Translations under genes and position numbers: made by a program
Notes under the pieces: model-generated
Told to the model about the DNA's origin: nothing
Seen by the model: the letters and a program-made list of their open reading frames with translations, nothing else
Databases searched by the model: none
Source of the DNA: Acidobacteriota bacterium
GTDB lineage: Bacteria > Acidobacteriota > Vicinamibacteria > Vicinamibacterales > 2-12-FULL-66-21
Length of the DNA: 49,424 nt
Direction of reading: 5' to 3'
Assembly: GCA_046734675.1 (NCBI GenBank)
Contig: JBKPRU010000021.1
Span: 1 to 49,424 of the forward strand
Shown: positions 3,377-48,625 of the stretch, piece after piece
How the letters are laid out: the number at the start of each line of letters is the position of its first letter
Position numbering within the stretch: the first letter of the stretch is position 1

Positions 3377-4335
3377 GCGATCGACCTCGGGCGCGCGCCC
3401 TCCCCCACCTCCGTGACGCGCCGCACGAACAGATCCTCGAGCGTTTCACGGATGGGATTCAGCGCGACCAGCGTGCCGCCGGCCGCCGTCACCTCCGCGA
3501 GGAGCTGCTCCGGACGGGCGTCCGCGGGGATGTCGATCGAGAAGCGGTCGCCGGTGATGGGCGTCACCGAGCGCACCCGCGGCCGGATCTTCTCGATCAC
3601 CTGCGGCGGCACGCGCGCGACGACGAGTTCCCACCCGTGGACCGCGAACTCCTGCAGGTCCGACAGGCGGCCGGTCGCGGCCAGCCGTCCCTTGGCGAGG
3701 ATCGCGACCCGGCTGCAGAGCGCCTCGGCGTCCGAGAGGATGTGCGAACTGAAGAAGATCGTGCGTCCCTGATCGCGAAGCTCGAGGGTGAGGGCGCGCA
3801 CGTCGCGGCGACCCAGCGGATCGAGCCCCGACATCGGTTCGTCGAGAATGATCAGTTCGGGATCGTTCAGCAGTGCCTGCGCGAGGCCGACGCGCTGCAG
3901 CATGCCTTTCGAGAAGCGCCGCAGCGGCAGCCGGCGCTCGGCGCCGATGCTCAGGCGGTCGAGCACGCCGCGCACGCGCCCGGTACGCTCGGCCGCACCC
4001 ATGCCGAAAAGCCGCGCGTAGTAATCGAGCAGCTCCTCGGCGGTCAGGTGATCGTAGAAATACGGGTTCTCGGGAAGGTAGCCGATGCGCCGCCGGACCG
4101 CCACGTCTCCGACCGGGCGTCCGAGGATCTCGGCGTCGCCGCGCGTGGGAAACACCAGCTGCATCAGCAGCTTCAGCGTCGTCGTCTTGCCGGCGCCGTT
4201 CGGCCCCAGGAAGCCGAAGACATCACCGGGGGCGACCTCGATCGAAAGACGATCCAATGCCCGGTAAGGGCGGGGACGCCAGAACCCGACCGGGAAGTCT
4301 TTCGTCAGCTCACGAGTGCGAATCGCGGGGACCAC
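3373..4335 (-). CDS. ABC transporter ATP-binding protein
   Basis: Walker A GPNGAGKTT, signature FSKGMLQRVGLAQAL, Walker B LIILDEP. The start is a GTG. Confidence 0.9.
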   Translation of the reverse strand: MVPAIRTRELTKDFPVGFWRPRPYRALDRLSIEVAPGDVFGFLGPNGAGKTTTLKLLMQLVFPTRGDAEILGRPVGDVAVRRRIGYLPENPYFYDHLTAEELLDYYARLFGMGAAERTGRVRGVLDRLSIGAERRLPLRRFSKGMLQRVGLAQALLNDPELIILDEPMSGLDPLGRRDVRALTLELRDQGRTIFFSSHILSDAEALCSRVAILAKGRLAATGRLSDLQEFAVHGWELVVARVPPQVIEKIRPRVRSVTPITGDRFSIDIPADARPEQLLAEVTAAGGTLVALNPIRETLEDLFVRRVTEVGEGARPRSIA

Positions 4336-4355
4336 GCGTCAAATTGAAAAGGGGA

Positions 4356-5555
4356 CTACTTGGATGCCCCTTTCAATTCCAGTTCCAATGCCTCTTCGAA
4401 GTATTGCGCCGGCAGCCCGCCCTTCAGCAGACGGCCATTAATAAAGAAGGTAGGCGTGGAAGTGACGCCCAGCACGGAGCCGGTCGACGCGTCCGTCTTC
4501 ACTTCCTGAATGGCTTTCGCGTACTGCGCGTCGAAATCTGTAATCCCACCGACAGTTTTGGCAGCGTCGCGGACCGTGGCGGGACTGAGCGTGCCCTGGT
4601 TGGTGAAGAACCAGGCGGTGAGCTTGTCGAAGGTCCCCTTCGACTGCGCCATCACCGCGGCGGCCGCCGCCTCGCACGCCGCCGGGTGCACCATCGTCGG
4701 CACCGACGAGTTGCACTGCGGGTTCAGCGGATAGTGCTTCATCAGGTACTTCACGCCGCGCGGCTCGTACTTCGCGAGGATCGATTCATACGCCTCGTAG
4801 GTCTGCTTGCACGGCGGGCACTGGTAGTCGTTGAACTTCACGACCAGCACCTTGGCGCCGTCGGCCGAATACGGCACCTGCACCTTCGGCTGCATCTCGT
4901 ACCAGCGCTGGAACTCGCTCCGCTGCTGCTCCGTGAGCGGCGCCGGCGCGGCGCCCGAGGCCGCGCTCTGTGACGCGTCGTGCGGGAAGAGCGCGACGGC
5001 CGATACCGCGCCCGCCAGGAAGAGCAGCGCGACGACAATCGCGAGCGGCGTCGTGACGAGCACGCGCAAATCGCGCGACGCGCGTCTCGGAAGACTGGTC
5101 ATAGGCAAGGAACTCGCTCCTCCGGAGATGATGAAGATGCCAATCACCGCGACGTAGGTCGCCACGCACAACGGGCACACCGCCTTGAGGATGAAGAAGG
5201 AGGCGTACGCGAGATACAGGACCACGGCGAGCGCGATCGTCGATGCCGCGAACACGTAGGCCGGCGCGCTGTCCGAAATACGGCTCTTCCCGCCCGCGCC
5301 CCAGACGAGGATCAGCACGAAGAGGAAGAAGACGAGGCCGCCGAGGGCGACCGGCACTCCGGCCAGCGATCCGTAGCGGCTCAGGTATGCCTGCGTGCAG
5401 CTGACGGTCGCATTGATGTCGCAGAAGCTCGTATAGGCCGGGTTCTTCAGCAGGTTGTAGTGCACGTAGGCCGACGCCGCGGACGCCAGCAGTCCGAGCA
5501 GCCCGAATCCGAGCAGAAGCCGTCGCGCGCGTGCTGACATCGGGAAAACCCTCAT
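4356..5555 (-). CDS. VKOR-domain / DsbA-like thioredoxin fusion (disulfide-bond-forming oxidoreductase)
   Basis: The N-terminal half has several TM helices with Cys pairs (FCDINATVSC, AVCPLC), typical of VKOR. The C-terminal half is a thioredoxin fold with CPPC (FNDYQCPPCKQ). An alternative start ATG at 5540 has a better GAGGG Shine-Dalgarno. Confidence 0.85.
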   Translation of the reverse strand: MRVFPMSARARRLLLGFGLLGLLASAASAYVHYNLLKNPAYTSFCDINATVSCTQAYLSRYGSLAGVPVALGGLVFFLFVLILVWGAGGKSRISDSAPAYVFAASTIALAVVLYLAYASFFILKAVCPLCVATYVAVIGIFIISGGASSLPMTSLPRRASRDLRVLVTTPLAIVVALLFLAGAVSAVALFPHDASQSAASGAAPAPLTEQQRSEFQRWYEMQPKVQVPYSADGAKVLVVKFNDYQCPPCKQTYEAYESILAKYEPRGVKYLMKHYPLNPQCNSSVPTMVHPAACEAAAAAVMAQSKGTFDKLTAWFFTNQGTLSPATVRDAAKTVGGITDFDAQYAKAIQEVKTDASTGSVLGVTSTPTFFINGRLLKGGLPAQYFEEALELELKGASK

Positions 5556-5558
5556 ATT

Positions 5559-6113
5559 CTACTTTATTTCCGTGCCTTTGCCGGGGTTCCCCGTCTCGGG
5601 CATCTTCTCGAGGTACGTCTCGGCGTCCTCGTAGAGCACGCGGTCCGCGTTGATCGCGAAGAAGCGCTCGCCGCTGATCCCCGGGGTTGCCGGATCGGCG
5701 GTCACCGCGTAGCCCTCCGCGACCGCCGTGCCGTTGCACGCGGGCGCGGCACCGTCGACTGGCTTCGCGGTCATTGCGAAGAGGTACCCGGATTTCTCGA
5801 ACTGATCCGCCGACGTCAGATCCGGGCTGAGGAACGCTTCGCCGCTCTGCGGCACCGGCTGCCCGAGTGCCGGCAGCGAGGCGGCGTACTTCTGGCTGCC
5901 GCACGTCTGCGCGAACTGCCACTGGGCCGCGGCAATCGAGCGCAGCGACGCGATGGCCGACGCTTCGTTGCCACGCGCGTGCATGTTGCGATAGGTCGCG
6001 AACGCAATGGCGAGGACGATGCCGATGATCGCGAGGACGATCATCAGCTCGATCAGCGTGAAGCCCTGCTGCGCGTCTCCTCCGCCTGAAGTCGGAAGCC
6101 GCGGGGCTTCCAA
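5559..6113 (-). CDS. type IV pilin-like protein (fourth paralogue); start uncertain
   Basis: ...DAQQ/GFTLIELMIVLAIIGIVLAIAFATYRNMHARGNEASAIASLRSIAAAQ matches the class III signal and N-terminal helix of the other three pilins, and it has two Cys. No ATG or GTG precedes the G/F cleavage site. The only candidate start is TTG at 6113, and the frame stays open upstream into the YfhO-like gene. Confidence 0.55.
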   Translation of the reverse strand: MEAPRLPTSGGGDAQQGFTLIELMIVLAIIGIVLAIAFATYRNMHARGNEASAIASLRSIAAAQWQFAQTCGSQKYAASLPALGQPVPQSGEAFLSPDLTSADQFEKSGYLFAMTAKPVDGAAPACNGTAVAEGYAVTADPATPGISGERFFAINADRVLYEDAETYLEKMPETGNPGKGTEIK

Positions 6114-8723
6114 CCGGCCGCTCCCCTCCGAGCTCCTGTAGCTTCCGCCTTCAGGCGGAAGTCTCCGCCGCGGCGCTCGCCAGACACTCATCGCCATCAA
6201 CAACAACGCTGTCACTGTCGTGATAGTTAGACCCGTGAACAGGTCGCGCGGTCTGAACCGGAACCGTATCACGTGGCGTCCCGGCGCGAGATGGACGGCG
6301 CGATACATGCCGTTCGCACGCGTCATCTCCGCGGCAGCGCCGTCGACCTCGACGCGCCACGACGGATCGTAGGAATCGCGCAGGACGAGGAACCCGTCGC
6401 GCTCCAGGCCGGCTTCGAGGACGACCCGGTTCTCGCCGTCCTCGACAAACCGCGCGAACGGCGGCACCGGCGCACCCGCGATTCCGGCGGCTGCCGGCAC
6501 GAACGGCACCCGCAGGTCATCGTCGGGTACCGTCGCATCGAACAGCGCACGCTGCTGCCATGCCGGGTCTTCGCCGGTTTTTGCCTTCGACGCGATGAAC
6601 ACGCGCGTCGCGTCCGGGTCGCAGTCGACGAGCCGCATCGACCAGTGGGGCACTGAAGCGATGGTATGCAGCCACGGGCGGGCGGCGTCCGGCAGCACGC
6701 ACCAGCGGACGCCGGAACGGCGCAGGAAAAGCTCGCGCTCGCCCGCCGTCGCGCGCTCGAAGCGGCGCACCAGCCCCTCGTACTCCGCCGGCCACAACAC
6801 CGGGAGATCGTAGGACAGCGCCTCGCGCACCTGCCACCCGGACGGCGCCATCGGCAGCTCCGCGTTCAACTCCATCCGCCCTTCGATCGCGGTCGGCTCG
6901 GCCGGGATCTCCCATTTCTTCGAGGCGTCGGGATCTTCCGCGTTCATGAACCCGCGCACCCGGCCGCCGATGTAGAGCCGCGAGTCCCCGGCGAGCGCCG
7001 TGTACCACTGCGGCGGCGTCAGCTTCGCCAGGTCCATGGTCAGGTTCAGATCGGCGTTGGTGACGACCAGGTCCGCGCACATCGCGGCAAGGAGCAGGTA
7101 TGCCGCCGCGTGCGCGCGCGAACCCGATGAGATCGCGATGGCCAGCAGCGTCGCGGCCGCGAGCAGCATCGCGGCGACGCGTGCCGCCAGCGGCGGCGCC
7201 ACGCGCAGCAGAAACGGCGTACCCGTCACCGGCTCCACGTGCACGCGTGTCGCCAGAGCGGCCACCGCGCGCTCCGCCCTGGCCGCCGCGACAATCGGCA
7301 GGGCAATCGCGACTCCGATCGCCATCGCGAGGACGACGCAGCCAAGCGCCACGAACTTGATGCGCCTCCGCTTACCCGCGTCTGCGAGCGCCGCCCAGCC
7401 GTCCGCCGCGAGCACCGCGACCGCAAACGTCGTCACGACGAGGTACTTCACCGGGAAGCGGAAGTACGTAAGCGGCGATAGCAGACGCCTTACCAGCGGG
7501 TAGAACGGCGTGTAGCCGCCCATCGCCGCCAGGAAGAAGAGGACGGCCAGCAGCGCCCAAACGACGTTTCGGCGCGGACGCGCGACCAGCCCGGTCGCCG
7601 CGAGCGCGAGCACGAGCGGCCCGACGTAGATGGAGTAATAGAACGGCTCGCGTCCGCTATTGAACGGCGCCATCCACGGCATGTCCGCAAGGAACGCGTC
7701 GTAGTAGTTGCCGAAGAGATGCGGCGCGACGACTTCGAGCGCGCCCAGCGGATGCAGCGACCAGAAATCCGGCGTCGCCATGTTGCCGCGATGCGCCTGC
7801 ACCCCTGCCATCATCGTCGGCCAGAGTTGCACGGCCGCGAGCAGCGCGCCGAGAAGCAAACCCGCCACGACCCATGCGGCGGCTGTCATGCCGGGTCTAA
7901 AGACCCGGCCTACGTGTGATCGAACTTGTCGGGTGTCGGCCGCATCTTTACTGGTGTAGCCCGAGTCTTTAGACCCGCCTTTCTCGACGTAGGCCGGGTC
8001 TTTTGACCCGGCGTTCTCGACGTAGGCCGGGTCTTTTGACCCGGCGTTCTCCACGTAGGCCGGGTCTTTAGACCCGGCAATCTGCCATCCGCGCCACGCC
8101 GCATACGCGACGGCGACGACGGCCGTCGACGCCAGCGTGACCGGCTCACCGCAGAGCGCCTGCAGTGCGACGGCGACGGCCAGCGTGGCGAGCCGCCGCA
8201 TCGACGGCGAGTCGATCAGCCGATCCGCCGCGAGCAGCACGAGCGGCATGGCGGCGACCGACCACGACAGGTTCGGCGCGTTGAGCATCGACACGATCGG
8301 TCCAGACAGTCCGAACGCGATCGCGCCGGTTGCTGACGCGGCGTCGCGGTGCGTGCGCCGCAGGAATGCGAACATGCCGAGGCTGGCAATCGGCAGGGGC
8401 AGCGCCACCCAGAGATTGAAGGACACGACCTCGGACGGGAGCAGCCGGATCAACGCCGTGATCGGCATGACCAGCTGGTTCAACGCGTCGGCGATCGCCG
8501 ACTGCCCCGCCGCGACGTAGGGATCCCACAGCGGGAACGACCCCGAGAAGACGGTGCGTCGAAACCAGAGGTGTCGCGACCAGAAGAAGAACGACAGGTC
8601 GCGGACGAAGAAGATCCTTGAGAGCGTGAAGAGGCCGGCGATCGGCACGATCGAGAGCGCGACGACGAGCCCGGCCCAACGCGAGCGGAGCAAACCGTGC
8701 GTTCGGGACGCCGGGTCGGTCAC
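5559..8723 (-). CDS. YfhO-family polytopic membrane protein, copy A (GT-C-like). The reading frame has no stop until the pilin stop at 5559.
   Basis: The GTG at 8723 overlaps the stop of copy B (GTGA). FFVRDLSFFFWSRHLWFRRTVFSGSFPLWDPYVAAGQS..., C-terminal VLRDSYDPSWRVEVDGAAAEMTRANGMYRAVHLAPGRHVIRFRFRP. It is colinear with copy B throughout. The expected end (after ...SVWRAPRRR, about 6160) has no stop codon. Confidence 0.7.
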   Translation of the reverse strand: MTDPASRTHGLLRSRWAGLVVALSIVPIAGLFTLSRIFFVRDLSFFFWSRHLWFRRTVFSGSFPLWDPYVAAGQSAIADALNQLVMPITALIRLLPSEVVSFNLWVALPLPIASLGMFAFLRRTHRDAASATGAIAFGLSGPIVSMLNAPNLSWSVAAMPLVLLAADRLIDSPSMRRLATLAVAVALQALCGEPVTLASTAVVAVAYAAWRGWQIAGSKDPAYVENAGSKDPAYVENAGSKDPAYVEKGGSKDSGYTSKDAADTRQVRSHVGRVFRPGMTAAAWVVAGLLLGALLAAVQLWPTMMAGVQAHRGNMATPDFWSLHPLGALEVVAPHLFGNYYDAFLADMPWMAPFNSGREPFYYSIYVGPLVLALAATGLVARPRRNVVWALLAVLFFLAAMGGYTPFYPLVRRLLSPLTYFRFPVKYLVVTTFAVAVLAADGWAALADAGKRRRIKFVALGCVVLAMAIGVAIALPIVAAARAERAVAALATRVHVEPVTGTPFLLRVAPPLAARVAAMLLAAATLLAIAISSGSRAHAAAYLLLAAMCADLVVTNADLNLTMDLAKLTPPQWYTALAGDSRLYIGGRVRGFMNAEDPDASKKWEIPAEPTAIEGRMELNAELPMAPSGWQVREALSYDLPVLWPAEYEGLVRRFERATAGERELFLRRSGVRWCVLPDAARPWLHTIASVPHWSMRLVDCDPDATRVFIASKAKTGEDPAWQQRALFDATVPDDDLRVPFVPAAAGIAGAPVPPFARFVEDGENRVVLEAGLERDGFLVLRDSYDPSWRVEVDGAAAEMTRANGMYRAVHLAPGRHVIRFRFRPRDLFTGLTITTVTALLLMAMSVWRAPRRRLPPEGGSYRSSEGSGRLEAPRLPTSGGGDAQQGFTLIELMIVLAIIGIVLAIAFATYRNMHARGNEASAIASLRSIAAAQWQFAQTCGSQKYAASLPALGQPVPQSGEAFLSPDLTSADQFEKSGYLFAMTAKPVDGAAPACNGTAVAEGYAVTADPATPGISGERFFAINADRVLYEDAETYLEKMPETGNPGKGTEIK
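6077..6161. repeat. Family B (REP-like) hairpins occupying the junction between YfhO-like A and the pilin domain
   Basis: GTAG + CTTCCGCC-TTCA-GGCGGAAG at 6138-6161. A degenerate CTCCGCCTGAAGTCGGAAG and GGAAGCC-GCGG-GGCTTCC lie at 6077-6110. Confidence 0.8.
7890..8078. repeat. Family B REP array inside the YfhO-A coding frame: four direct GTAG+palindrome units at exact 33-nt spacing (7956, 7989, 8022, 8055) plus one inverted unit (7890-7913)
   Basis: GTAGGCCGGGTCTTTTGACCCGGC repeated. On the coding strand it translates as GSKDPAYVENA x3 without a stop. This segment has no counterpart in paralogue B. Confidence 0.9.
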
Positions 8724-11167
8724 GCGGCCGCTGTCGTGGCGGTCACCCGCGCCCGGCGCAGCCGCCGGTCGACCAGGCACCACGCGACCAGCGCGAGGGC
8801 CGCCGCGGCGGTAATCGACGCGCCGAGATATACGAGGCGGGGCTCGTAGGTGAAGGTGACGACGTGATTGCCGCGTGTCAGGTGGACGGCGCGGAAGGTG
8901 CCGTTGGCGCGCATGAGCGGCGCTGCCATGCCGTCGACGTCGACGGTCCAGTCCGGATCGTAGCTGTCGAACAGCGCGAGATAGCCGTCGGCCGGCAGAC
9001 CCGCACGAACGACGACGCGGTCGTGCGCGTCCTGGATGATGGCTGCAGATGCAGCGACCGCAGGGCCCTCGAGGCCCGCGGCCGCAGGGGGCCGCTCGCT
9101 GACGAGCACGCCCGTCCGCGGATCGAACCGCTGCTGGAATAGGCCCTCGATCTGCCACGGAATGTCCGGGCCGATCAGCGCGTCGGGCACGACCGTCACG
9201 CGCGTGGCGTCGGGGTGACATTCGTAGAGCTGCATCTGGGGAATGCCGCGCAGTGACGCGAGCGGCTTCGCGCCGGAATACGGCGGCGTCGGCAGCACGC
9301 AGAAACGAGTACCGATACGCTGCAGGACCCTCAGCCGCTCTTCGCGCGTGGCGCCGCGGAACCGTGTGATCAACCTGGCGTAGTCGAGCGGCCAGAGCAG
9401 CGGGAGATCGAACGAGATCGATTCGCGCACCTGCCATCCCGACGGCGAGTACATCAACTCGTTCACCGCGAGATACCGCGCGTCGGTCGGCGACGTGGCA
9501 TCCGGAGGACTCACCCACTTCGGCGCATCGGGATCCAGCGGATTGATCCAGCCTTCGAGACGGCCCCCCATGTAGAGGCGCTCCCCCGGATGCGCGTTCA
9601 TCACGTCCACCCACGCCGGCGGCCCCAGCGCCGCCGCGTTCATCGTCGGATTCACGTCGCTGTTGGACGCAGCCAGATCGACGACGAGGGCGACGCCGAG
9701 CACCGCGCGCGCGAACCGGCGCTCGCGGCGCGTCGAGATCGCGATGACCACGAGCAGACTCGTCGCCATCAGTTTGAGAAACAACGTGGTCAGCAGCGGC
9801 CGCGCACGGAAGATCAGGTATTCCGCGCCCTGGATGGGGAACGGCACGTGCGCGATCTCCGCGAGCCGATAGAAGACACGCGCGGGATGCGCCGGCGCGA
9901 TGAGCAACCACGCGACGACGACGTAGGCGCACACTCCGACAGCCGCCGCGAGCGCGGCGACGATGACCCCGCGCCGCCACCGAATCTCGCCGTCGAGAAT
10001 CGCCTGCCACCCGTACGCCGTCAGCGCGGCGAGCGCGAACGACCCGAGCGAGAGGTACTTCACGGGGAACCGGAACGCGCTCAGGCCCGGGACGACCTGC
10101 TGCAGTATCGGATAAATCGGTGTGTACGATCCGAGCGCCGCGACGACGGCAGCAAGTAGTGCCGTCGCCCAGAATGCGTGCTGCCGCCGACGAATCGTGG
10201 TTGCGAGTGCCGCGACCACCACGGCGACCACACCGACGTACATCGTGTAATAGAACGGCTCGCGCCCGCTGTTCAGCGCGACCATCCATGGGAGCTCGCG
10301 CAGATTCGAGCTGAAATAATCACCGTAGAAGTGCGGCACGAACAGCTCGAGCAGCGCGAGCGGGTGGAAGGCCCAGAAATCGTCGCCCGTCATCAGGCTG
10401 CGCACCGAGTGGCGGCTGGCGCCAAGCAGAGGCGCGAACTGGATGGCCGCGAGCACGAGCCCGAGGACGACGGCGGCGAGGGTCGTCGCCAGCGCGCGCG
10501 TGCGAGCGCGCCAGTCCGGAGCCGCGACGACGAGCGTGTAGGCCGCAGCCAGTGCGAGCGTGCCGGCGAGACTTACCGGCTCCCCCGCCAGTGCCTGCAT
10601 CGCGACGATCGCGGCGAGGGCAGCCGCCGTCGCCCCGGCCGGCCGGGTGAGCACGCGATCGATGGCCCAGAACACGTACGGAACCGCCGCGATCGACCAG
10701 GACAGGTTCGGAAAGTTCGTCGTCGAGACGATCGGGCCCGACAGCGCGAATGTGAGCGCGCCAATCGACGCCGGGACGTCGCGTACGTGCCGCCGCAGGA
10801 ACAGCCATGCGCCGAGGCAGGCGATCGGGACGGGCAGCGCGACCCAGAGATTCCAGGCGAGGATCTGCGGAAGCAGCAGCCGCAAGGCAAGCGTCGGCGG
10901 CAGGAACAACTGGTACAACGCGTCGCCCGCGGCCGACTGTCCCGACGCGGGGAACGGATCCCACCAGGGCCACTGCGCGGACGCAACCGTGCTCCGGAGC
11001 CACAGAAAGCGCGAATGAAACGCGAGCGTGAGATCGCGAACGAAGAACATCCGCGACGTCGTGAAGACGCCGGCGACGGGCACGAACGCGACGGCGGTGA
11101 CGATCAGGCCCCACGTCCACCCGGGCCAGGCACCGGGTGAGAAACGGGAGTGACGTTGTCGCAGCAT
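8720..11167 (-). CDS. YfhO-family polytopic membrane protein, copy B (GT-C-like)
   Basis: MLRQRHSRFSPGAWPGWTWGLIVTAVAFVPVAGVFTTSRMFFVRDLTLAFHSRFLWLRSTVASAQWPWWDPFPASGQSA..., C-terminal LFDSYDPDWTVDVDGMAAPLMRANGTFRAVHLTRGNHVVTFTYEP. I prefer ATG 11167, because the track start 11227 would place the pilA terminator hairpin inside the gene. Confidence 0.8.
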   Translation of the reverse strand: MLRQRHSRFSPGAWPGWTWGLIVTAVAFVPVAGVFTTSRMFFVRDLTLAFHSRFLWLRSTVASAQWPWWDPFPASGQSAAGDALYQLFLPPTLALRLLLPQILAWNLWVALPVPIACLGAWLFLRRHVRDVPASIGALTFALSGPIVSTTNFPNLSWSIAAVPYVFWAIDRVLTRPAGATAAALAAIVAMQALAGEPVSLAGTLALAAAYTLVVAAPDWRARTRALATTLAAVVLGLVLAAIQFAPLLGASRHSVRSLMTGDDFWAFHPLALLELFVPHFYGDYFSSNLRELPWMVALNSGREPFYYTMYVGVVAVVVAALATTIRRRQHAFWATALLAAVVAALGSYTPIYPILQQVVPGLSAFRFPVKYLSLGSFALAALTAYGWQAILDGEIRWRRGVIVAALAAAVGVCAYVVVAWLLIAPAHPARVFYRLAEIAHVPFPIQGAEYLIFRARPLLTTLFLKLMATSLLVVIAISTRRERRFARAVLGVALVVDLAASNSDVNPTMNAAALGPPAWVDVMNAHPGERLYMGGRLEGWINPLDPDAPKWVSPPDATSPTDARYLAVNELMYSPSGWQVRESISFDLPLLWPLDYARLITRFRGATREERLRVLQRIGTRFCVLPTPPYSGAKPLASLRGIPQMQLYECHPDATRVTVVPDALIGPDIPWQIEGLFQQRFDPRTGVLVSERPPAAAGLEGPAVAASAAIIQDAHDRVVVRAGLPADGYLALFDSYDPDWTVDVDGMAAPLMRANGTFRAVHLTRGNHVVTFTYEPRLVYLGASITAAAALALVAWCLVDRRLRRARVTATTAAA

Positions 11168-11196
11168 CAGGCGACGTGCAGGGTACCGGAGCACAT

Positions 11197-11230
11197 ATGA
11201 AAAGGCGAGGGATGTCCGAGCGGACATCCC
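11197..11230 (-). terminator. candidate intrinsic terminator after pilin 1
   Basis: Perfect 9-bp stem GGGATGTCC-GCTC-GGACATCCC (11209-11230), followed on the minus strand by TCGCCTTTTCAT. Confidence 0.55.
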
Positions 11231-16486: not shown

Positions 16487-16538
16487 GTAGGCCGGGTCTT
16501 TGGACCCGGCGTGTGGCGGGCCTGAAGACCCGCCCTAC
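16487..16538. repeat. Family B REP pair in inverted orientation (BIME-like)
   Basis: GTAGGCCGGGTCTTTGGACCCGGC (16487-16510) and GGCGGGCCTGAAGACCCGCCCTAC (16515-16538). Confidence 0.9.
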
Positions 16539-16582
16539 ACCTGTGTTTTAGGACGCGCTTCGCGGCCTTCCGTCTTCTTTTC

Positions 16583-16688
16583 TCAATGCGCGTGGGGCCC
16601 CACCCCCACGCGCTTTACGCGCTTCTCGGCGGCCTTCTGTCTTTGTCGTTGTCTTCTGTCTTCCGCCTTCTGTCTTCTGTCTTCTCTT
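16583..16688 (-). repeat. Family A element, copy A2 (truncated) with a CTGTCTT/CCGTCTT simple-repeat tail
   Basis: Core hairpin at 16588-16613. The tail GTCTTCTGTCTTCCGCCTTCTGTCTTCTGTCTTC abuts the pilC stop. Confidence 0.85.
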
Positions 16689-17933: not shown

Positions 17934-17989
17934 GTAGGGCGCGTCTTCAGACGCGCCGTCCCCGAGGCGCACCTGAAGGTGCGCCCTAC
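17934..17989. repeat. Family B REP pair in inverted orientation
   Basis: GTAGGGCGCGTCTTCAGACGCGCC and GGCGCACCTGAAGGTGCGCCCTAC. Confidence 0.9.
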
Positions 17990-19124: not shown

Positions 19125-19300
19125 GTGATCCTTTTTTCAATGCGCGTGGGGCCCCATCCCCACGCGCTTCACGCGCTTCGCGCGACGCCCTTCGTCCCTC
19201 GACGTCGCTCGGGACGACCCTGAGCTGTCGAAGGGTCGGGCTTGCCGCCGCGTCGCGGCGGCCGTCTGTCTTCCGCCTTCCGTCTTCCGTCTTCCGTCTT
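19125..19300 (-). repeat. Family A element, copy A3 (long form with a nested 44-nt insert and a CCGTCTT x3 tail)
   Basis: Core hairpin at 19142-19167, nested insert at 19195-19238, GCCGCCGCGTCGCGGCGGC at 19243-19261. It fills the whole pilB-pilT spacer. Confidence 0.9.
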
Positions 19301-21220: not shown

Positions 21221-21403
21221 GCCGGGTCTAAAGACCCGGCCTATGTGGAGAACCGATGGCGCCTCCAAGAGGCGCCCTACCGTCGGCCGATTCGCGTAAG
21301 TGGAGCAGTGGCGGTAGGTCGCACCCGGCCTGCGCGGAGCACCGGCGGTAGGGCGCACCTTCAGGTGCGCCTCCATAACGGCGCCTCTAAAGAGGCGCCC
21401 TAC
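21221..21403. repeat. cluster of four clear Family B REP units (plus one degenerate) in mixed orientation
   Basis: Units at 21221-21244, 21258-21280, 21348-21371 and 21380-21403, plus a degenerate unit near 21314-21345. Confidence 0.9.
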
Positions 21404-30421: not shown

Positions 30422-30547
30422 TCCGGTGTGCGCAGTTGCTCGCACTCACACGCTAGCAGGGCTGCCCGGCGTGAGTCGGCGTGGCCTGCTTGTATCTAAT
30501 GTGCCGCCGCACTACGATGGCCGTCTTACAGCGGAGGGTACCCGCCT

Positions 30548-32647
30548 ATGAAGGTCTACGATGCCGCCAGCATCAGGAACGTGGCTGTGGTCGGCCACTC
30601 CGGGTCTGGCAAGACGCAGCTCGTGTCCACCCTGCTCTTCGACGCGGGGGCGGTCAACCGCCTCGGCCGCGTCGATGAAGGCACCACGGTCACCGATTAC
30701 GACGAAGAAGAAATCGCCCGCAAGCACACCCTCTCCGCCAGCCTCGCCTACGCCGAGTGGAACAAGCACAAGATCAACATCATCGATACGCCCGGGATGG
30801 CCAACTTCCTGAGCGATGCGCGCGCCGCGCTGCGCGTCGCCGATGCGGCGCTCGTGGTCGTCGATTCGGTGGCCGGTGTCGAAGTCTCCACGGAGAAGGT
30901 CTGGGAGGCGGCGGCTGAAATCGGGGTCCCGCGTCTCATCGTGCTCAACCGGCTCGACCGCGAGCGGGCCAGCCTCGAGCGCTCCCTCGAATCGCTCCGA
31001 TCCGTCTTCGGCCGCACCGTCATTCCCATCCAGCTGCCGATTGGGGAAGAAAAAAACTTCAAGGGCGTCGTCGATCTGGTGACGATGCGCGCGTGGACGT
31101 ATCCGGCCGACGGCAGCGGCAAAGGGACGGAAGGGGATGTCCCCGCCGATCTGACCGGCGCCGCCGAAACCGCGCGCGAAGCGCTCATCGAGATGGTCGC
31201 GGAAGCCGACGATGCGTTGATGGAGAAGTTCTTCGATGCGGGCACGCTGACGCAGGAGGAGCTGAGCGGCGGCTTGAAGCGCGCGATTGCCGCGGCCCGC
31301 GTGTTCCCGGTGCTGTGCGCGTCGGCCACCACCAACATCGGCATGCAGCCAATCCTCGAGGCGATCCTCGCCTACGTGCCATCGCCGGTCGAGCGTCCGC
31401 TGAAGGCGCGCACCGCCGAAGGTGAGGACGTCGACGTCGCGACGCGCGAATCGGGGCCGGCGGCCGCGTTCGTGTGGAAGACGGTGGCGGATCCCTTCGC
31501 GGGCCGCATCACGATGTTCCGCGTGCTGTCGGGATCAGTAAAGGCGGATTCAACGCTGCAGAACCTCTCTAAGGATCTGCAGGAGCGGCTCGGGCACGTC
31601 GTGCTGCTGCAGGGCAAGAACCAGTCGGCGGTCCCGGAAGTCCGCGCCGGCGACATCGGCGCCGTGGCAAAGCTGAAGGAAACGCAGACGAGCGACACCA
31701 TCGGCGACGCGAAGGCGCTCGACGTGAAGATCCCGCCGATCAAGTTCCCCGAGCCGGTGATCTCGTACGCGATCGAGCCGAAGAGCCGCGGCGACGAAGA
31801 GAAGATCAGCACGGCCCTCCACCGCCTGCAGGAAGAGGATCCGACGATCAGCTACAACCGCGATCAGCAGACGAAGGAGCTGCTGCTCGCCGGCCAGGGA
31901 CAGTCGCACATCGAGGTGACGGTCGCGAAGTTGAAGCGCCGCTTCGGCGTCGAGGTCACGCTGCGGCCGCCGCGCATTCCCTATCGCGAGACCATCACGC
32001 TCGCGACCGAGGCGCACGGGCGCCACAAGAAGCAGACCGGCGGCCACGGCCAGTTCGGCGACTGCAAGGTCAAGTTCGAGCCGTTGCCGCGCGGCAGCGA
32101 CTTCGAGTTCGTGGACGACATCTTCGGCGGGTCGATCCCGCGCCAGTTCATTCCCGCGGTCGAGAAGGGGATTCAGGATGCACGGCTGCGCGGCTTCCTC
32201 GCCGGCTATCCGATGGTCGACTTCCGCGCCACCGTGTTCGACGGATCGTTCCACGCCGTCGACTCGAACGAACTGTCGTTCAAGATGGCGGGCTCGCTCG
32301 CGTTCAAGGACGGGATGTCACGCGCCCGCCCGACGCTGCTCGAGCCGGTGATGAACGTCGAGGTGTATGCGCCGAGCGACTACGCCGGCGACCTGATGGG
32401 AGATCTCAACAGCCGGCGCGGCCGCATCGGCGGCATGGACACGCGCGGCGCCATGACCATCATCCGCGCCAAGGTGCCGATGGCGGAGATGCTGACCTAC
32501 GAGCAGCACCTCACGTCGGCGACCGGCGGCCGCGGCTCGTATCACATGGAGTTCTCGCACTACGAGGAGGTGCCGAATCACCTCCACGGGAAGATCATCG
32601 CGGCATCGAAGGCCGAACGCGGCGCCGAAGCGACCGAAGAGGTGTAA
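30548..32647 (+). CDS. elongation factor G paralogue (EF-G2-like translational GTPase)
   Basis: IRNVAVVGHSGSGKTQL (G1), DTPGMANF (G3), NRLDRE (G4), followed by EF-G domains II-V. Confidence 0.85.
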   Translation: MKVYDAASIRNVAVVGHSGSGKTQLVSTLLFDAGAVNRLGRVDEGTTVTDYDEEEIARKHTLSASLAYAEWNKHKINIIDTPGMANFLSDARAALRVADAALVVVDSVAGVEVSTEKVWEAAAEIGVPRLIVLNRLDRERASLERSLESLRSVFGRTVIPIQLPIGEEKNFKGVVDLVTMRAWTYPADGSGKGTEGDVPADLTGAAETAREALIEMVAEADDALMEKFFDAGTLTQEELSGGLKRAIAAARVFPVLCASATTNIGMQPILEAILAYVPSPVERPLKARTAEGEDVDVATRESGPAAAFVWKTVADPFAGRITMFRVLSGSVKADSTLQNLSKDLQERLGHVVLLQGKNQSAVPEVRAGDIGAVAKLKETQTSDTIGDAKALDVKIPPIKFPEPVISYAIEPKSRGDEEKISTALHRLQEEDPTISYNRDQQTKELLLAGQGQSHIEVTVAKLKRRFGVEVTLRPPRIPYRETITLATEAHGRHKKQTGGHGQFGDCKVKFEPLPRGSDFEFVDDIFGGSIPRQFIPAVEKGIQDARLRGFLAGYPMVDFRATVFDGSFHAVDSNELSFKMAGSLAFKDGMSRARPTLLEPVMNVEVYAPSDYAGDLMGDLNSRRGRIGGMDTRGAMTIIRAKVPMAEMLTYEQHLTSATGGRGSYHMEFSHYEEVPNHLHGKIIAASKAERGAEATEEV

Positions 32648-32650
32648 CGG

Positions 32651-32894
32651 TTGTCAATGCCGAATGCCGGACACTGACGCTTGTCAATGCCGGAGGCTGA
32701 GGCTTGTCAATGCCGAATGCCGGACACTGACGCTTGTCAATGCCGGAGGCTGAGGCTTGTCACTGCCGAATGCCGGCGCTGACGATTGTCAATGGCGAAG
32801 GTCGAAGGCCAATCGCTTGGGGATTCCGGCATTTGGCACTGACGTTTGCCGTTCGGCATTGACAAGTGTCACACCCGGCATTTGGCATTGACAC
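32651..32894. repeat. Family D repeat hairpin: 53-nt unit (TTGTCAATGCCGAATGCCGGACACTGACGC + TTGTCAATGCCGGAGGCTGAGGC) x about 3, followed by the complementary arm
   Basis: Direct units begin at 32651, 32704 and 32757. The right arm (32826-32894) contains GGCATTTGGCA..., CGGCATTGACAAG and GGCATTTGGCATTGACA, complementary to the units. It fills the spacer between two convergent genes. Confidence 0.9.
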
Positions 32895-35444
32895 CTACTG
32901 CGGCAGGACCGTGGTGTCCGCCTTCAATTTGCCCGGGGACGCCGCCAGATACTTTCCCGGCGACAGCACAATCTGATCGATCCCGATGCCGTCCTCGCGC
33001 GTCTGGATGCGGATCCGGTGCGTGCCGCTCGTGCTGAACGTGATCTCAGGGCCGAGCACGTTCGCGCCGTAGCCGTTGTCCTGCCAGCCCCAACCCGAGA
33101 CGCCGCAGCCGCTGCAGTCTTCGAGATTCACCACCGTCGAATCGCTGGTGCCGATCCGGTAGGCGGTGGCGCCGGACTCGTCGAGGCTGTCGCTGAACTG
33201 CACGTGCACGGAGTCGTTCGCGTAGTTGTCGCCGCTCGCCTTCCCGCGAATCCAGAGACGATAGGGCCGTCCCGCCGCCGCCTGGAACGTGAGCTCGAAG
33301 TAATCAGCGGGCGACTCGCTCGCGGTCACGATCTTCGGCAGCCCCGCGTTCGCGTTCTGCATGCGCGCGCCTGATGCCGCGGTCGCGTCGCTGACGACCG
33401 ACCACGCGCCGGTGGCGCTTCCGTCCGCGGCATAGAGCACCACGTCGTCGGCGGCGGCGGTCGTCGCACCGCCGCGCGCGGCGAGAATCGTCCCGTCGTT
33501 CTTCGCTGCGCCCGGCGCGCTCGACAGATACTTCGCCGCCGAGAGCACGATCTGATCGATCCCGAGTCCGTCCTCGCGCACCTGCACGCGGACGCGGTGC
33601 ACGCCGCCCGACGCGAACCGCACCGCCGGCCCGCGCACGCCGGCGCCATAGCCGTTGTCCTGCCAACCCCAGCCCGAGACGCCGCAGCCGCTGCAGTCTT
33701 CGAGCGACATCGTCGTCGCGCCGGTGGTACCGATCGTCCAGATCGGCGCGCCGGCTGCGTCGATCGCGTCGCTGAACTGGACGAACACCGAGTCGTTCGC
33801 CCAGGTGTCGGCGGTCGCGCGTCCGCGGATCCACAGGTGATAGTCGGTGCGCGCGTCGGCGGTGAACGACAGCTCGAAATAGTCGGCCGGGCTCGCCGCG
33901 GCGGTGGCGATTTTCGCCGCGCCGGCGTCGGGATTCTGCAGGCGCGCTCCGGACGCGGCGCTCGCATCGGCGACCACCTGCCACCGCCCGATCACGGACG
34001 CGGACGCCGCGTGCAGGACGATCTCCGGCATCGTCACGGTCGGTGCGGAGGCGACCGCGCGCTGGATGTTGAGCCGTCCGCCCGTGACGGTGAATCCCTG
34101 GAGCGACGTGACGCGATCGACGGCGCCGAGCAGGCGCGCCCTGAGCTCGCGGCCGGTGAGCGCGGTCGCGGCGTTGACGAGCGCGGCCGCGCCCGTGACG
34201 TGCGGCACCGCCATCGAAGTGCCGTTGTAATAGGCGTAGCCGTTGCGCGGCGTGGTGCTCAGGATGTCGACGCCGGGCGCGCCGAGATCGACGGTTCTCG
34301 CGCCGAAGTTGGAGAAGTCGGCCAGGCGATCCCATCGATCGGTCGCCGCAACCGTGATCACCGAGTTGTAGCCGACCGCCGAGGTCGTGTCGTAGCTGGC
34401 GGGATAGGACGGCGCCTGGTCGAGATCGTCGCCGAGGCCGTCGGATCCGCCGTTGCCCGCGGCGGCGATGAACAGGATGTCGGCGCGCGCGGCGCGGGCG
34501 ATCGCATCGAGGAGCGCCTGCGAGAAGCCGCCGCCGTTCCACGAGTTGTTGATCGCGACCAGGTTCAGGCCGTGGCGCGTCTTCAAGTCGGTGAGGTAAT
34601 CGACCGCGCGAATCGCATCGGCGGTCGTGCCGTTCGACGCCCCCAGGAACTTCGCCGGAATGATCGTGACGTTCCAGTTGATGCCGGCGACGCCAATCCC
34701 GTTGTTCGCGCGCGCGCCGATCGTGCCGCTCACGTGCGTGCCGTGCGCGTCGATCGACAAATCGGCGCTGCTCCCGTCGTAGACCGTATTGTCGCCGCCG
34801 AGAAAGTCCCAGCCGTGCACGTCGTCGACGTAGCCGTTCAGATCGTTGTCGACGCCGTCGACCGGATCGTAGGGGTTGGTCCAGATCGGCCCGCCCGGTT
34901 GCACGCCGAGGTCTTCGTGGTTGATGTCGATTCCCTGATCGATCACGCCGACGTAGACGTGCGACGATCCGAGCGAGACGTTCCACGCTTCGGGCGCGTC
35001 GACGTCGGCGTCGTTCAGGCCGGCGCTGCCGTCGATCGGCTGCGCGGTGTTGTTGAAACCCCAGAGCTGGTTGAACTTCGGATCGTTCGGCAGCGTCGCC
35101 GGCGTGTAGATCCAGTTCGGCTCCGCGTATTCGACGGATGGATCGCGCGACACTGCCGCAATCGCGTCCGCGACGGCGACGGCAGGGTCGATCGTGAGGA
35201 GCTCGAGGTCGCCCTCGCCCGCGTCGTGCCGCAGGCGGTTGCGCTCGTGCTGCAGGCGCGCCCGGGCGAGGCCGCGCGCCCGCGACTTCTCCCCTTCGCG
35301 TGCACCCGAGCGGTATTTGACGATGAGCTGAGTGGCGGCGAAGCGCGAACCGGCGGGCGCCTGCGCGCGGACGCGCGAGGACCCGGGAGTCATGAACGCC
35401 GCCAGCAGAGTGACACCGATGCTGAAGACGCGAATCGTGCGCAT
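32895..35444 (-). CDS. secreted subtilisin-like serine peptidase (S8) with two tandem C-terminal beta-sandwich-like domains
   Basis: Signal peptide, inhibitor-I9-like propeptide, catalytic D (VGVIDQGID), H (HGTHVSGTIGA) and S (GTSMAVPHVTGAAAL), then two repeats of about 165 aa each containing LEDCSGCGVSGWGWQDNGYG. Confidence 0.88.
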   Translation of the reverse strand: MRTIRVFSIGVTLLAAFMTPGSSRVRAQAPAGSRFAATQLIVKYRSGAREGEKSRARGLARARLQHERNRLRHDAGEGDLELLTIDPAVAVADAIAAVSRDPSVEYAEPNWIYTPATLPNDPKFNQLWGFNNTAQPIDGSAGLNDADVDAPEAWNVSLGSSHVYVGVIDQGIDINHEDLGVQPGGPIWTNPYDPVDGVDNDLNGYVDDVHGWDFLGGDNTVYDGSSADLSIDAHGTHVSGTIGARANNGIGVAGINWNVTIIPAKFLGASNGTTADAIRAVDYLTDLKTRHGLNLVAINNSWNGGGFSQALLDAIARAARADILFIAAAGNGGSDGLGDDLDQAPSYPASYDTTSAVGYNSVITVAATDRWDRLADFSNFGARTVDLGAPGVDILSTTPRNGYAYYNGTSMAVPHVTGAAALVNAATALTGRELRARLLGAVDRVTSLQGFTVTGGRLNIQRAVASAPTVTMPEIVLHAASASVIGRWQVVADASAASGARLQNPDAGAAKIATAAASPADYFELSFTADARTDYHLWIRGRATADTWANDSVFVQFSDAIDAAGAPIWTIGTTGATTMSLEDCSGCGVSGWGWQDNGYGAGVRGPAVRFASGGVHRVRVQVREDGLGIDQIVLSAAKYLSSAPGAAKNDGTILAARGGATTAAADDVVLYAADGSATGAWSVVSDATAASGARMQNANAGLPKIVTASESPADYFELTFQAAAGRPYRLWIRGKASGDNYANDSVHVQFSDSLDESGATAYRIGTSDSTVVNLEDCSGCGVSGWGWQDNGYGANVLGPEITFSTSGTHRIRIQTREDGIGIDQIVLSPGKYLAASPGKLKADTTVLPQ

Positions 35445-35480
35445 ATTGCGGCCGCGCTCGACCGCGGCAGTATCGCTACA

Positions 35481-35511
35481 GAAAGAAAAACCCCGTCCGG
35501 ATGGACGGGGT
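35481..35511 (-). terminator. intrinsic terminator of the alpha operon (after rplQ)
   Basis: Minus strand: ACCCCGTCC-ATCC-GGACGGGGT followed by TTTTTCTTTC. Confidence 0.8.
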
Positions 35512-35620
35512 CTGGTGATCGCGCCGCGTGGCGCGACGCGCGGAACAGTCTGTCAGAGAGTGACGACGGAATGCAAGCTGAGCGCGCCCGCCTTCGCCAC
35601 CGCTCCGGCGCGGCCGGCGG

Positions 35621-37350: not shown

Positions 37351-37419
37351 AAGCTGCCAGCTCCAGCTGCCAGCTCCCAGCGAAGACGCTGGAGGCGGGT
37401 AGCTGGCGGCTGCCAGCTT
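37351..37419. repeat. Family C simple-repeat hairpin, copy C1
   Basis: AAGCTGCCAGCTCCAGCTGCCAGCTCCCAGCG-AAGA-CGCTGGAGGCGGGTAGCTGGCGGCTGCCAGCTT. It overlaps the rpsD stop. Confidence 0.85.
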
Positions 37420-38063: not shown

Positions 38064-38197
38064 CTTGTCAATTCCGAATGCCAAATGCCGCCACCAAGAA
38101 CGCGTCAATGACGAGGTGCTCCGTTGCCGAACACCACCGGTCACGACGCCTTGGTCATTGGCATGTGTCATTCGGCATTCGGCATTCGGCATTGACG
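38064..38197. repeat. Family D hairpin, second locus (rpsK-rpsD spacer)
   Basis: Left arm CTTGTCAATTCCGAATGCCAAATGCC. Right arm GGCATGTGTCA(TTCGGCA)x3TTGACG. Inner stems ACCAAG...CTTGGT and GCGTC...GACGC. Confidence 0.85.
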
Positions 38198-38683: not shown

Positions 38684-38733
38684 GTCAGCTACCAGCTACC
38701 AGCTACCAGCTACCCGCTGGTGGCTGGCGGCTA
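38684..38733. repeat. Family C hairpin, copy C2
   Basis: GTCAG(CTACCAG)x3CTACC-CGC-TGGTGGCTGGCGGCTAC. Confidence 0.88.
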
Positions 38734-39107: not shown

Positions 39108-39187
39108 CTCAGCTCCCAGCTCCCAGCCTCCAGCTACCAGCGTCAGCGACCAGCTCAGTGCTGGTGGCTGGTGGCTGGCGGCTGACC
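39108..39187. repeat. Family C hairpin, copy C3
   Basis: CTCAGCTCCCAGCTCCCAGCCTCCAGCTACCAGCG...GTGCTGGTGGCTGGTGGCTGGCGGCTGAC. Confidence 0.88.
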
Positions 39188-42457: not shown

Positions 42458-42468
42458 GTGTTTGCCCC

Positions 42469-42492
42469 GGCGGGTCTCAAGACCCGCCCTAC
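42469..42492. repeat. Family B REP unit (rplO-secY spacer)
   Basis: GGCGGGTCTCAAGACCCGCCCTAC. Confidence 0.88.
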
Positions 42493-44131: not shown

Positions 44132-44184
44132 GTAGGCCGGGTCTTTAGACCCGGCGATGCGGCGGGTCTAAAGACCCGCCCTAC
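44132..44184. repeat. Family B REP pair in inverted orientation (rplF-rplR spacer)
   Basis: GTAGGCCGGGTCTTTAGACCCGGC and GGCGGGTCTAAAGACCCGCCCTAC. Confidence 0.9.
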
Positions 44185-44194
44185 GTGCTGAGGC

Positions 44195-44745: not shown

Positions 44746-44828
44746 CTCAGCTTTCAGCCACCAGCTGCCGGCTGCCAGCGACCAGCGTCGTTCGTTCGCG
44801 CTGGTGGCTGGCGGCTGGCCGCTGACGG
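44746..44828. repeat. Family C hairpin, copy C4
   Basis: CTCAGCTTTCAGCCACCAGCTGCCGGCTGCCAGCGACCAGCG...CGCTGGTGGCTGGCGGCTGGCCGCTGAC. Confidence 0.88.
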
Positions 44829-45230
44829 CTACCACACATTACAGAGCACTTCGCCGCCGACGCCCGCCTTGACCGCCTCGCGGCCGGTCATGACGCCGCG
44901 CGACGTCGTCAGGATGCTGGTGCCGAGGCCGGCCAGCACGTCGGGCACTTCGTCGCGTCCGAAGTAGACGCGGCGGCCCGGACGGCTCACCCGCTGGATG
45001 CCGGTGATCACGCGCTCGCCGCGCGGCCCGTACTTCAGGAAGATCCTGAGGGTCGCCTGCGGCTCGCCGTTCTGCGGCTCCAGCACTTTCGAGCCCTGGA
45101 TGTAGCCTTCGCTCTCCAGGATGCGCGCGATCTCCACCTTCAGCCGGGAGGAGGGCATGTCGACCCGCGGATGCCGCGACTGGGTCGCGTTGCGGATCCG
45201 GGCGAGCATGTCTGCGATAGGGTCAGTCAT
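44829..45230 (-). CDS. rpsH: 30S ribosomal protein S8
   Basis: MTDPIADMLARIRNATQS... ATG 45230 with GAGG upstream. The track start is a TTG three codons earlier. Confidence 0.92.
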   Translation of the reverse strand: MTDPIADMLARIRNATQSRHPRVDMPSSRLKVEIARILESEGYIQGSKVLEPQNGEPQATLRIFLKYGPRGERVITGIQRVSRPGRRVYFGRDEVPDVLAGLGTSILTTSRGVMTGREAVKAGVGGEVLCNVW

Positions 45231-46382: not shown

Positions 46383-46452
46383 GTCAGCTTCCAGCTACCA
46401 GCTACCAGCTATCAGCCTCCAGCTGCCAGCTTGCTGCTGGTGGCTGGCGGCT
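46383..46452. repeat. Family C hairpin, copy C6
   Basis: GTCAGCTTCCAGCTACCAGCTACCAGCTATCAGCCTCCAGCTGCCAGC-TTGC-TGCTGGTGGCTGGCGGCT. Confidence 0.88.
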
Positions 46453-47723: not shown

Positions 47724-47820
47724 GTTCCCGGTTCCCGGTTCCCCGTTCCCGGTTCGTCTTCAGTTCACCGTTCGTGGTTCCGTGACCGGAACCCGGAAAT
47801 CGAACCGGGAACCCGGAACG
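47724..47820. repeat. simple-repeat hairpin, unit GTTCCCG (rpsC-rplP spacer)
   Basis: Left arm GTTCCCGGTTCCCGGTTCCCCGTTCCCGGTTCG. Right arm GACCGGAACCCGGAAATCGAACCGGGAACCCGGAACG. Confidence 0.88.
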
Positions 47821-48552: not shown

Positions 48553-48625
48553 GCGATCAGTGATCTCTGAGTGGCGATTCACAAATCACCCCATTTCAAA
48601 TCACTAATCACTAATCACTAATCAG
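48553..48625. repeat. simple-repeat element, unit AATCACT x4 with a degenerate complementary arm (rplV-rpsC spacer)
   Basis: GCGATCAGTGATCTCTGAGTGGCGATTCACAAATCAC...AAATCACTAATCACTAATCACTAATCAG. It is strikingly AT-rich for this genome. Confidence 0.8.

Follow-up and report, generated by a model that had tools for sequence, protein, structure and literature searches.

In-frame GTAG-type REPs in a membrane loop of a YfhO-like glycosyltransferase gene from Acidobacteriota

The contig JBKPRU010000021.1 of an Acidobacteriota bacterium carries a block of palindromic repeats inside a protein-coding gene. The window analysed here is this one contig of 49,424 nt, and the copy-number and dispersal counts given for it refer to these 49 kb. 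The block consists of units of a repetitive extragenic palindrome (REP), four direct and one inverted, occupying 192 nt (7890-8081) within a gene that we call gene A, which encodes a YfhO-like glycosyltransferase fused to a type IV prepilin; the gene immediately upstream encodes a YfhO-like paralogue, B, in which the insert is absent. In the predicted product the insert is a 64-residue disordered loop. REPs inserted in frame within genes are already known, and the notable part is their persistence at one site. The explanation that we favour, with a probability of about 0.78, is a tolerated insertion of transposase-mobilised REPs, expanded by slippage, with frame-breaking variants purged by selection.

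The repeat block and the loop it encodes

Tandem Repeats Finder detects a 33-nt period over 7956-8078 (3.7 copies, 92% matches, score 197), the strongest array in the window except for a 53-nt repeat at 32651. A repeat search places four direct GTAG-type units at 7956, 7989, 8022 and 8055, with successive spacings of 33, 33 and 33 nt; each 33-nt repeat is made up of a 24-nt REP and a 9-nt linker. A unit begins with GTAG as its head, followed by a GC-rich stem of 8 bp whose two halves enclose a 4-nt loop (TTYA). The GTAG head (or CTAC, on the opposite strand) is present in 5 of the 5 units of the block, and the 8-bp stem with a 4-nt loop is perfect in 4 of them. The segments 7889-7916 and 8052-8079 form an inverted repeat of 28 nt with 100% complementarity, in which the GTAG head of the inverted unit faces the heads of the direct units. 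The 33-mers of units 2 and 3 are a single base apart, which suggests that the latest tandem duplication was recent. In the window as a whole, the 20-nt core GCCGGGTCTTTAGACCCGGC has 17 strand-matches when up to 3 mismatches are allowed, compared with 0.00 expected, and the pattern GTAG-N8-TTYA gives 11 matches compared with 0.26 expected.

The family to which these units belong, here called family B, and its sister families with other stems also occur at the intergenic sites 16487-16540, 17934-17989, 21221-21403, 42465-42492 and 44132-44187, most of them inverted doublets. Nine strict REP copies lie outside gene A, all between genes of the same direction and mostly in doublets. Because the same family and its sisters sit in intergenic gaps with the same layout, the units of the block are, as judged from their sequence, ordinary GTAG-type REPs. 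At least four stem variants coexist in the window, all of the form GTAG, 8 bp, TTYA, 8 bp. An Rfam search over 5500-9000 found no family, save one chance match below threshold.

BLASTP aligns residues 16-207 of protein A with 39-230 of protein B, and residues 281-835 with 245-806, leaving 73 residues in A compared with 14 in B. The 192-nt block (residues 215-278) is free of stop codons in one of the six frames, which is the frame of gene A itself, and encodes 64 residues with GSKDPAYVENA repeats. In the AlphaFold2 model, helices 194-217 and 277-295 flank the insert, of which residues 231-272 are disordered (pLDDT, the per-residue confidence score, below 50). These results bear out the anatomy proposed in the preliminary description of this DNA, which had placed four units at an exact 33-nt spacing from 7956 and had read the block as a stop-free, frame-preserving insertion relative to paralogue B, situated between predicted transmembrane segments; its inverted unit, given as 7890-7913, is real and extends over 7889-7916.

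The loop probably lies between the sixth and seventh membrane helices on the cytoplasmic side, because the count of helices from the N-terminus, the alternation of R/K-rich loops with neutral or acidic ones and the arginine-rich uninserted orthologues all place it there; at the loop, the uninserted orthologues read WRDPRR, RPRLST and RARGRRLR. This topology rests on a crude hydropathy scan, the positive-inside rule and the GT-C convention. The features of the block, of the other REP sites and of the host genes are collected in Table 1.

Table 1. Repeat units, related REP sites and host genes, with coordinates in the 49,424-nt window
Feature	Coordinates	Strand	Remarks
Whole in-frame insert	7890..8081	-	192 nt, residues 215-278, ends HVGRVFRPG; bounds from translation and alignment to paralogue B
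REP family B unit 1 (gene order), GTAGGCCGGGTCTTTAGACCCGGC	8055..8078	+	Coding strand AGSKDPAY; perfect 8-bp stem, 4-nt loop, GTAG head; arm of the 28-nt inverted repeat at 8052-8079
REP family B unit 2, loop TTTT	8022..8045	+	Repeat and hairpin scans
REP family B unit 3, loop TTTT	7989..8012	+	Repeat and hairpin scans
Degenerate unit 4, GTAGCCCGAGTCTTTAGACCCGCC	7956..7979	+	Encodes GGSKDSGY; 3 mismatches to core, imperfect stem
Unique 39-nt spacer from direct array to inverted unit	7917..7955	.	Single copy in the window at <=3 mismatches
Inverted REP family B unit, coding strand CACGTAGGCCGGGTCTTTAGACCCGGCA	7889..7916	-	Encodes HVGRVFRPG; 28/28 nt complementary to 8052-8079; decayed orthologous copy at the same position in L001
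Second in-frame REP, family A, GTAGCTTCCGCCTTCAGGCGGAAG	6138..6161	+	In glycosyltransferase-pilin linker, encodes LPPEGGSY; strict REP and hairpin scans
Degenerate partner of the linker REP, coding strand GGCTTCCGACTTCAGGCGGAGG	6079..6102	-	Encodes RLPTSGGG; 3 mismatches to family A, GTAG head not intact
Intergenic B/B' doublet	16487..16540	.	Between pilC and pilS
Intergenic tail-to-tail doublet, family B and variant B'	44132..44187	.	Between the genes of ribosomal proteins L18 and L6; usual setting of the family
Gene A, YfhO-like GT-C glycosyltransferase (residues 1 to ~850), linker and type IV prepilin	5559..8723	-	1054 aa
Paralogue B, YfhO-like, without pilin domain and without loop insert	8720..11227	-	BLASTP/Pfam

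Age of the insertion and constraint on gene A

A comparison with orthologues, already suggested in the preliminary description, shows that the insert is common to gene A and a 75%-identical orthologue, and that many other orthologues have a minimal, REP-free loop. The 75%-identical orthologue (protein P0002, locus L001) was assembled independently from two samples, both of which carry the homologous array. It shares both boundaries of the insert: its first unit stands at the same codon offset (+24 after the motif GEPVT), and a decayed inverted unit, GCAGGCCGGGTCATCACACCCGGC, lies at an equal distance from helix 7. Between these outer units L001 holds an 18-nt array in place of the 33-nt array of the window. 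By the common boundaries in these two sequences, the insertion is old rather than recent and predates the split from the 75%-identical orthologue.

The same loop is occupied by REPs in many further lineages. Among more distant orthologues, L004 contains a single unit, L003 a 21-nt array and L137 a head-to-head pair of B and its variant B'. In a large clade at 50-60% identity, the loop has a head-to-head pair of family A (GTAGCTTCCGCCTTCAGGCGGAAG), translated FRLKAEAT...VASAFRRK and often with perfect stems, and a third family, E (GTAGCTCCAGCCTTCAGGCTGGAG), is found in the loop of L100. Counted from GEPVT, family A is inserted after 16-17 codons and families B and E after 22-24 codons; the different offsets indicate that family A on the one hand and families B and E on the other represent separate insertion events. 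Altogether, the loop contains a recognisable REP-derived peptide in 49 of the 120 orthologues; these peptides go back to at least three families (A, B and E). In a neighbour-joining tree families A and B fall into different clades, with REP-free basal clades. When all retrieved loci were scanned under strict REP criteria, intragenic REPs in these genes were confined to this loop, except for those in the linker of the window gene. The A-type loop measures 186 to 402 nt between its flanking motifs. The equivalent loop of paralogue B has a constant 219-225 nt between motifs, usually reads RRWRD.R and is free of REPs in 22 of 22 intact loci.

Two further observations concern the REP families themselves. 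The 24-nt sequences of families A and B are almost identical across genomes whose orthologous proteins are just 50-65% identical (for example, L004 10350-10409 and L120 7597-7620). There is also a composite element, in which a family A REP has about 50 nt of another palindromic sequence in its loop, translated SLRQGYGGPP.RFARR or, in the opposite orientation, PPSAFARSA..SLGGGW. It occupies the protein loop of L086 (10547-10735, about 50 nt inside the family A REP loop, SLRQGYGGPP...) and the linker of L136 (gene 3415-6351), and was also seen in P0018, P0027, P0060, P0075, P0003 and P0004. Since its position, loop or linker, varies with the genome, the composite appears to be mobile as a unit.

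Sizeable tandem arrays were found in the loop in six lineages, and all have periods divisible by three: 33 nt in the window, 18 nt in L001 and in L095, 21 nt in L003 and in L087/L121, and 15/45 nt in L138. Of the 45 loci in which the flanking motifs GEPVT and PDFWSLHP are both present, 44 keep the frame between them. Translation of the second REP unit follows different frames in different lineages, giving VASAFRRK or SFRLQAE and VGRVFRPG or RAGLQTRL. We read the in-frame state as survivorship and not design: the gene is needed, so variants with stops or with lengths not divisible by three would have been purged, and the REP itself need not be adapted for coding.

Selection on the host gene was measured as the ratio of nonsynonymous to synonymous substitution rates (dN/dS, NG86 method) in comparisons with L001, L003 and L004. 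The values range between 0.09 and 0.26 before the insert, after the insert and in the pilin domain, and residues invariant among 55 orthologues are numerous along the whole length of the protein. With dN/dS close to 0.2 and this degree of conservation, gene A is by its pattern of substitution under purifying selection and not a pseudogene, and the pseudogene hypothesis is rejected. The preliminary description had offered two readings of the block, a tolerated loop expansion with repeat DNA exapted as protein sequence and a recently inactivated gene. The second fails on these data. The tolerated expansion is supported by the disorder of the loop within an otherwise confidently modelled protein, by the low dN/dS and by the invariant residues; the exaptation does not follow from it.

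It could still be argued that gene A was inactivated recently or that the block is an assembly artefact, either a collapsed or mis-assembled repeat or a frame open by chance. The window is one metagenome-assembled contig that was encountered only once, short-read assembly can misjudge the copy number of a repeat, and in L125, an orthologous contig of 1 kb, the frame changes close to the site. We find this explanation barely credible, given the low dN/dS on both sides of the insert, the full-length protein with a confident structural model, a block that is open only in the gene's own frame, and the homologous array in two independent assemblies of the 75%-identical orthologue; in addition, the array spans 123 nt, which is below the typical read length.

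Frame changes were noted in two short metagenome contigs, at 575-830 of L125 and at 4130-4352 of L133. The former immediately follows the REP pair in an A-type loop, and the latter lies in the loop of a B-type paralogue. Both may be sequencing errors or truly inactivated copies.

Tolerated insertion and its alternatives

The favoured explanation would involve three steps. Mobilisation of the type carried out by REP-associated tyrosine transposases (RAYTs, of the Y1/HUH type) could have brought one REP, or a pair of them, into a short, arginine-rich and permissive loop; slippage or unequal exchange could subsequently have tandemly duplicated the 33-nt unit; and purifying selection would have filtered the outcomes. 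The translated peptide would be tolerated by the enzyme and presumably neutral.

Several results weigh against this explanation. None of 31 open reading frames of the window scanned against Pfam matches a RAYT or Y1_Tnp transposase, a result that covers a 49-kb contig whereas RAYT genes, typically flanked by REPs, are usually single-copy per genome; the scanned frames code for proteins of the ribosome and the pilus, for ABC transporters and the like. The remaining results are at the same time those that speak for a different possibility, namely that the loop is a REP site kept by selection or by some mechanism and that the hairpins act at the DNA or RNA level within the coding region. Passive tolerance leaves the uninvaded loop of paralogue B (0 of 22) unexplained, and the presence of at least three families plus a nested composite in the A-type loops, at offsets of +16/17 for family A and +22-24 for B and E, could be understood more readily if the site were maintained. 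The REP hairpins remain near-perfect at the site in lineages whose proteins are 50-60% identical, with perfect, consensus-identical 8-bp stems in several distant lineages. Identity at third codon positions is 0.76 in the REP codons of the second unit compared with 0.48 in the flanking codons, a difference that is only suggestive, as the flanking codons were anchored on the REP start and are imperfectly aligned. Some stem changes are compensatory: pairs changed on both sides number 4, compared with 1.0 in shuffles. The outer arms in the window are identical over 28 of 28 positions though their counterparts in L001 have decayed, and the RNA of the insert is predicted to fold with -133.6 kcal/mol (z = -12.9).

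It is possible to envisage different roles for such a maintained site. The hairpins may form a barrier to mRNA decay or processing that sets the ratio of the upstream pilin and YfhO-B genes to the fusion gene, they may be a candidate binding site for gyrase or another protein, or an existing GTAG site may attract new REPs, with families turning over at one spot. We nevertheless regard a maintained site as unlikely. No recognisable REP is present in 71 of the 120 orthologues, among them entire clades and also those at the base, which argues that the site is dispensable, and decay is visible in many copies. Most of the observed pattern could be accounted for by vertical inheritance after two or three ancestral insertions, and the conservation of the repeats could reflect a constraint at the protein level on R/K-rich helix ends. 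The corresponding broader proposition, that the loop between helices 6 and 7 is a long-lived intragenic landing site for REPs across a bacterial class, at which families replace one another and hairpins are kept, is in our view similarly doubtful. Such persistence could come about if a GTAG site already present drew in further RAYT-mediated insertions, or if a structured element in the coding region adjusted expression in the pilus operon. If the proposition were true, a coding gene would provide "extragenic" palindromes with a heritable location under selection.

Selection could also act on the protein, with the REP peptides serving as a functional cytoplasmic loop, for instance an interaction or regulatory segment. 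The length of the loop is highly variable, several lineages show independent expansions of repeats 5-11 residues long, and the translations of family A, FRLKAEAT and VASAFRRK, put R/K residues at the cytoplasmic ends of the helices. Yet the peptides are wholly different between lineages, the frame of the second unit differs by lineage, many orthologues manage with a minimal loop of 13 residues, and the segment is predicted to be disordered. We consider a selected peptide very improbable, and tolerated insertion with selection against frame-breaking variants the best account of the locus.

Host gene, genomic setting and relation to known systems

Gene A runs from a GTG start codon at 8723 to 5559, and its start overlaps, as GTGA, the TGA stop of paralogue B, which lies upstream. 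Its protein is identical to the database protein P0001, the sole contig of which is the window. The YfhO domain (PF09586) scores 49.7 bits compared with a cut-off of 28.5, in a match confined to the C-terminal part. The AlphaFold2 model has a mean pLDDT of 84 and a predicted TM-score (pTM) of 0.76, and a Foldseek search with it retrieves AftD (E = 1e-6), ArnT and STT3/PglB with probability 1.0. Residues R41 and D42, directly after helix 1, are invariant in the 55 orthologues. On the basis of the model, the host protein is a YfhO-like glycosyltransferase of GT-C fold and a putative enzyme.

The C-terminal 168 residues constitute a type IV prepilin (PF07963, E = 1.3e-10). In the prepilin motif, ...AQQG/FTLIELMIV..., where the slash marks the predicted cut, G887, F888 and E892 are invariant in the 55 orthologues, and the G887/F888 junction falls at about 6062-6065. 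The prepilin domain has no separate start, no stop codon before it and no nearby ATG or GTG, and continues the 886-residue open reading frame of the glycosyltransferase. The fusion of glycosyltransferase and prepilin is found in 101 of the 120 best homologues, often with linkers of just 5-20 residues. If the predicted PilD-type cut at G/FTLIE takes place, it would make the whole membrane enzyme the "leader peptide" of the pilin. The topology of the fusion appears compatible with this, as the last helix would run from outside to inside, the RRR-rich linker would lie inside and the pilin helix would run from inside to outside. A literature search for a glycosyltransferase::prepilin fusion found no paper describing one.

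The linker holds a REP pair of its own (6079-6161). REP-derived linker sequence occurs in only 6 of the 75 orthologues with a measurable linker, from which it follows that the fusion is older than the linker REP. The idea that the linker REP gave rise to the fusion was rejected, most fused orthologues having short, REP-free linkers.

The neighbourhood is a type IV pilus cluster with PilB, a PilT-like ATPase, PilC, PilS, PilR, a pilin, YfhO-B, the YfhO-A::pilin fusion, VKOR-DsbA and an ABC transporter; related contigs additionally hold PilD and minor pilins. Other repeats are present in the window. The 53-nt tandem repeat (32651-32801, 2.9 copies, 93% identity, internal motif TTGTCAATGCCG) is situated in the gap between the genes for EF-G (30500-32647) and a subtilase (32895-35552). 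There are many short tandem repeats with a 7-nt period (for example, CAGCTAC x4.7 and x6.7, CTTCTGT x7.7, AATCACT x3.7), at 16634-16685, 19268-19300, 37352-37381, 38169-38193, 38686-38718, 39110-39184, 44800-44830, 46385-46431, 47724-47819 and 48599-48624, several of them in short gaps among ribosomal-protein and pilus genes.

The locus can be viewed as a natural experiment on the entry of selfish palindromic repeats into proteins, with one permissive loop, several families, purifying selection and an uninvaded paralogue. With this locus, the range of in-frame REPs comes to include Acidobacteriota and a polytopic membrane enzyme, and there is a concrete place to ask whether REPs recruit REPs and whether REPs function within operons. 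It also carries a warning for annotation, in that peptides such as VASAFRRK in database proteins are translated REPs.

The closest precedent is the survey of GTAG and CGTC REPs by Di Nocera, De Gregorio and Rocco (BMC Genomics 2013, PMC3733652), some of which lie entirely inside genes for known proteins. The preliminary description thus overstated the case in treating extragenic palindromes as intergenic by definition and an in-frame array as unusual. More than half of the intragenic REPs in that survey are dimers or groups encoding 20-30 residues, and for Thauera and R. conorii it lists clusters of 43-82 residues. Its sole case of different REPs "about at the same site" is recB of two Xanthomonas species, and the authors propose neutral insertion in flexible linkers or loops, with inactivating insertions purged. 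The repeats described here resemble those REPs in their GTAG head, their GC-rich stem-loop, the mostly intergenic distribution of the family and the occurrence of head-to-head and tail-to-tail dimers. They differ in that one loop of one gene is occupied by several families across dozens of divergent uncultured Vicinamibacteria-like lineages, in the independent arrays with periods divisible by three and the uninvaded paralogue as a control, and in that the host is a polytopic membrane enzyme and not a DNA-repair protein.

Rickettsia palindromic elements (RPEs) are longer, about 100-150 bp. They are the classic in-frame case, tolerated in functional genes according to the work of Ogata et al. 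(2000) as cited in PMC3733652, and RPE-4 and RPE-6 are classed as CGTC REPs by Di Nocera (PMC3733652). Like RPEs, the repeats of gene A are palindromic, in frame in a functional gene and tolerated at a permissive surface position, a likeness that is functional only. The RPE family is unrelated in sequence, belongs to an obligate intracellular alphaproteobacterium and, except for RPE-4 and RPE-6, has neither a tandem 33-nt array nor the GTAG architecture.

With the REPIN-RAYT system (Bertels and Rainey 2011, PMC3116915), in which REPINs are two inverted REPs with a spacer that replicate together as a multi-copy doublet, and with the bacterial interspersed mosaic elements (BIMEs) of E. coli, the block has in common inverted REP pairs that could fold into a long hairpin, variable copy number and vertical persistence. 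Unlike REPINs, which are described as extragenic, the 191-nt doublet is single-copy in the window, encloses a unique spacer and is intragenic, and unlike in BIMEs the array is direct and not alternating. Membership in the REPINs was rejected, as the doublet is head-to-head with a 135-nt gap and a spacer unique in the window, compared with intergenic tail-to-tail doublets with gaps of 4-9 nt.

In-frame insertions are also known for miniature inverted-repeat transposable elements (MITEs), for example Nezha in cyanobacteria, cited in PMC3733652, and Chunjie in Geobacter. These share with the block the tolerance of small non-autonomous repeats in a coding frame. MITEs have terminal inverted repeats derived from insertion sequences and target-site duplications, unlike the block described here. 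A MITE reading of the 28-nt inverted repeat was rejected, since the flanks ...GGCTGTCA and ATCTGCC... show no direct repeat around 7889-8079 and the element and its spacer are single-copy in the window. Several points go beyond these precedents: how deeply and widely a single site has been reused, the part played by several families, the arrays with periods divisible by three, the control provided by the paralogue and an acidobacterial membrane enzyme as the host.

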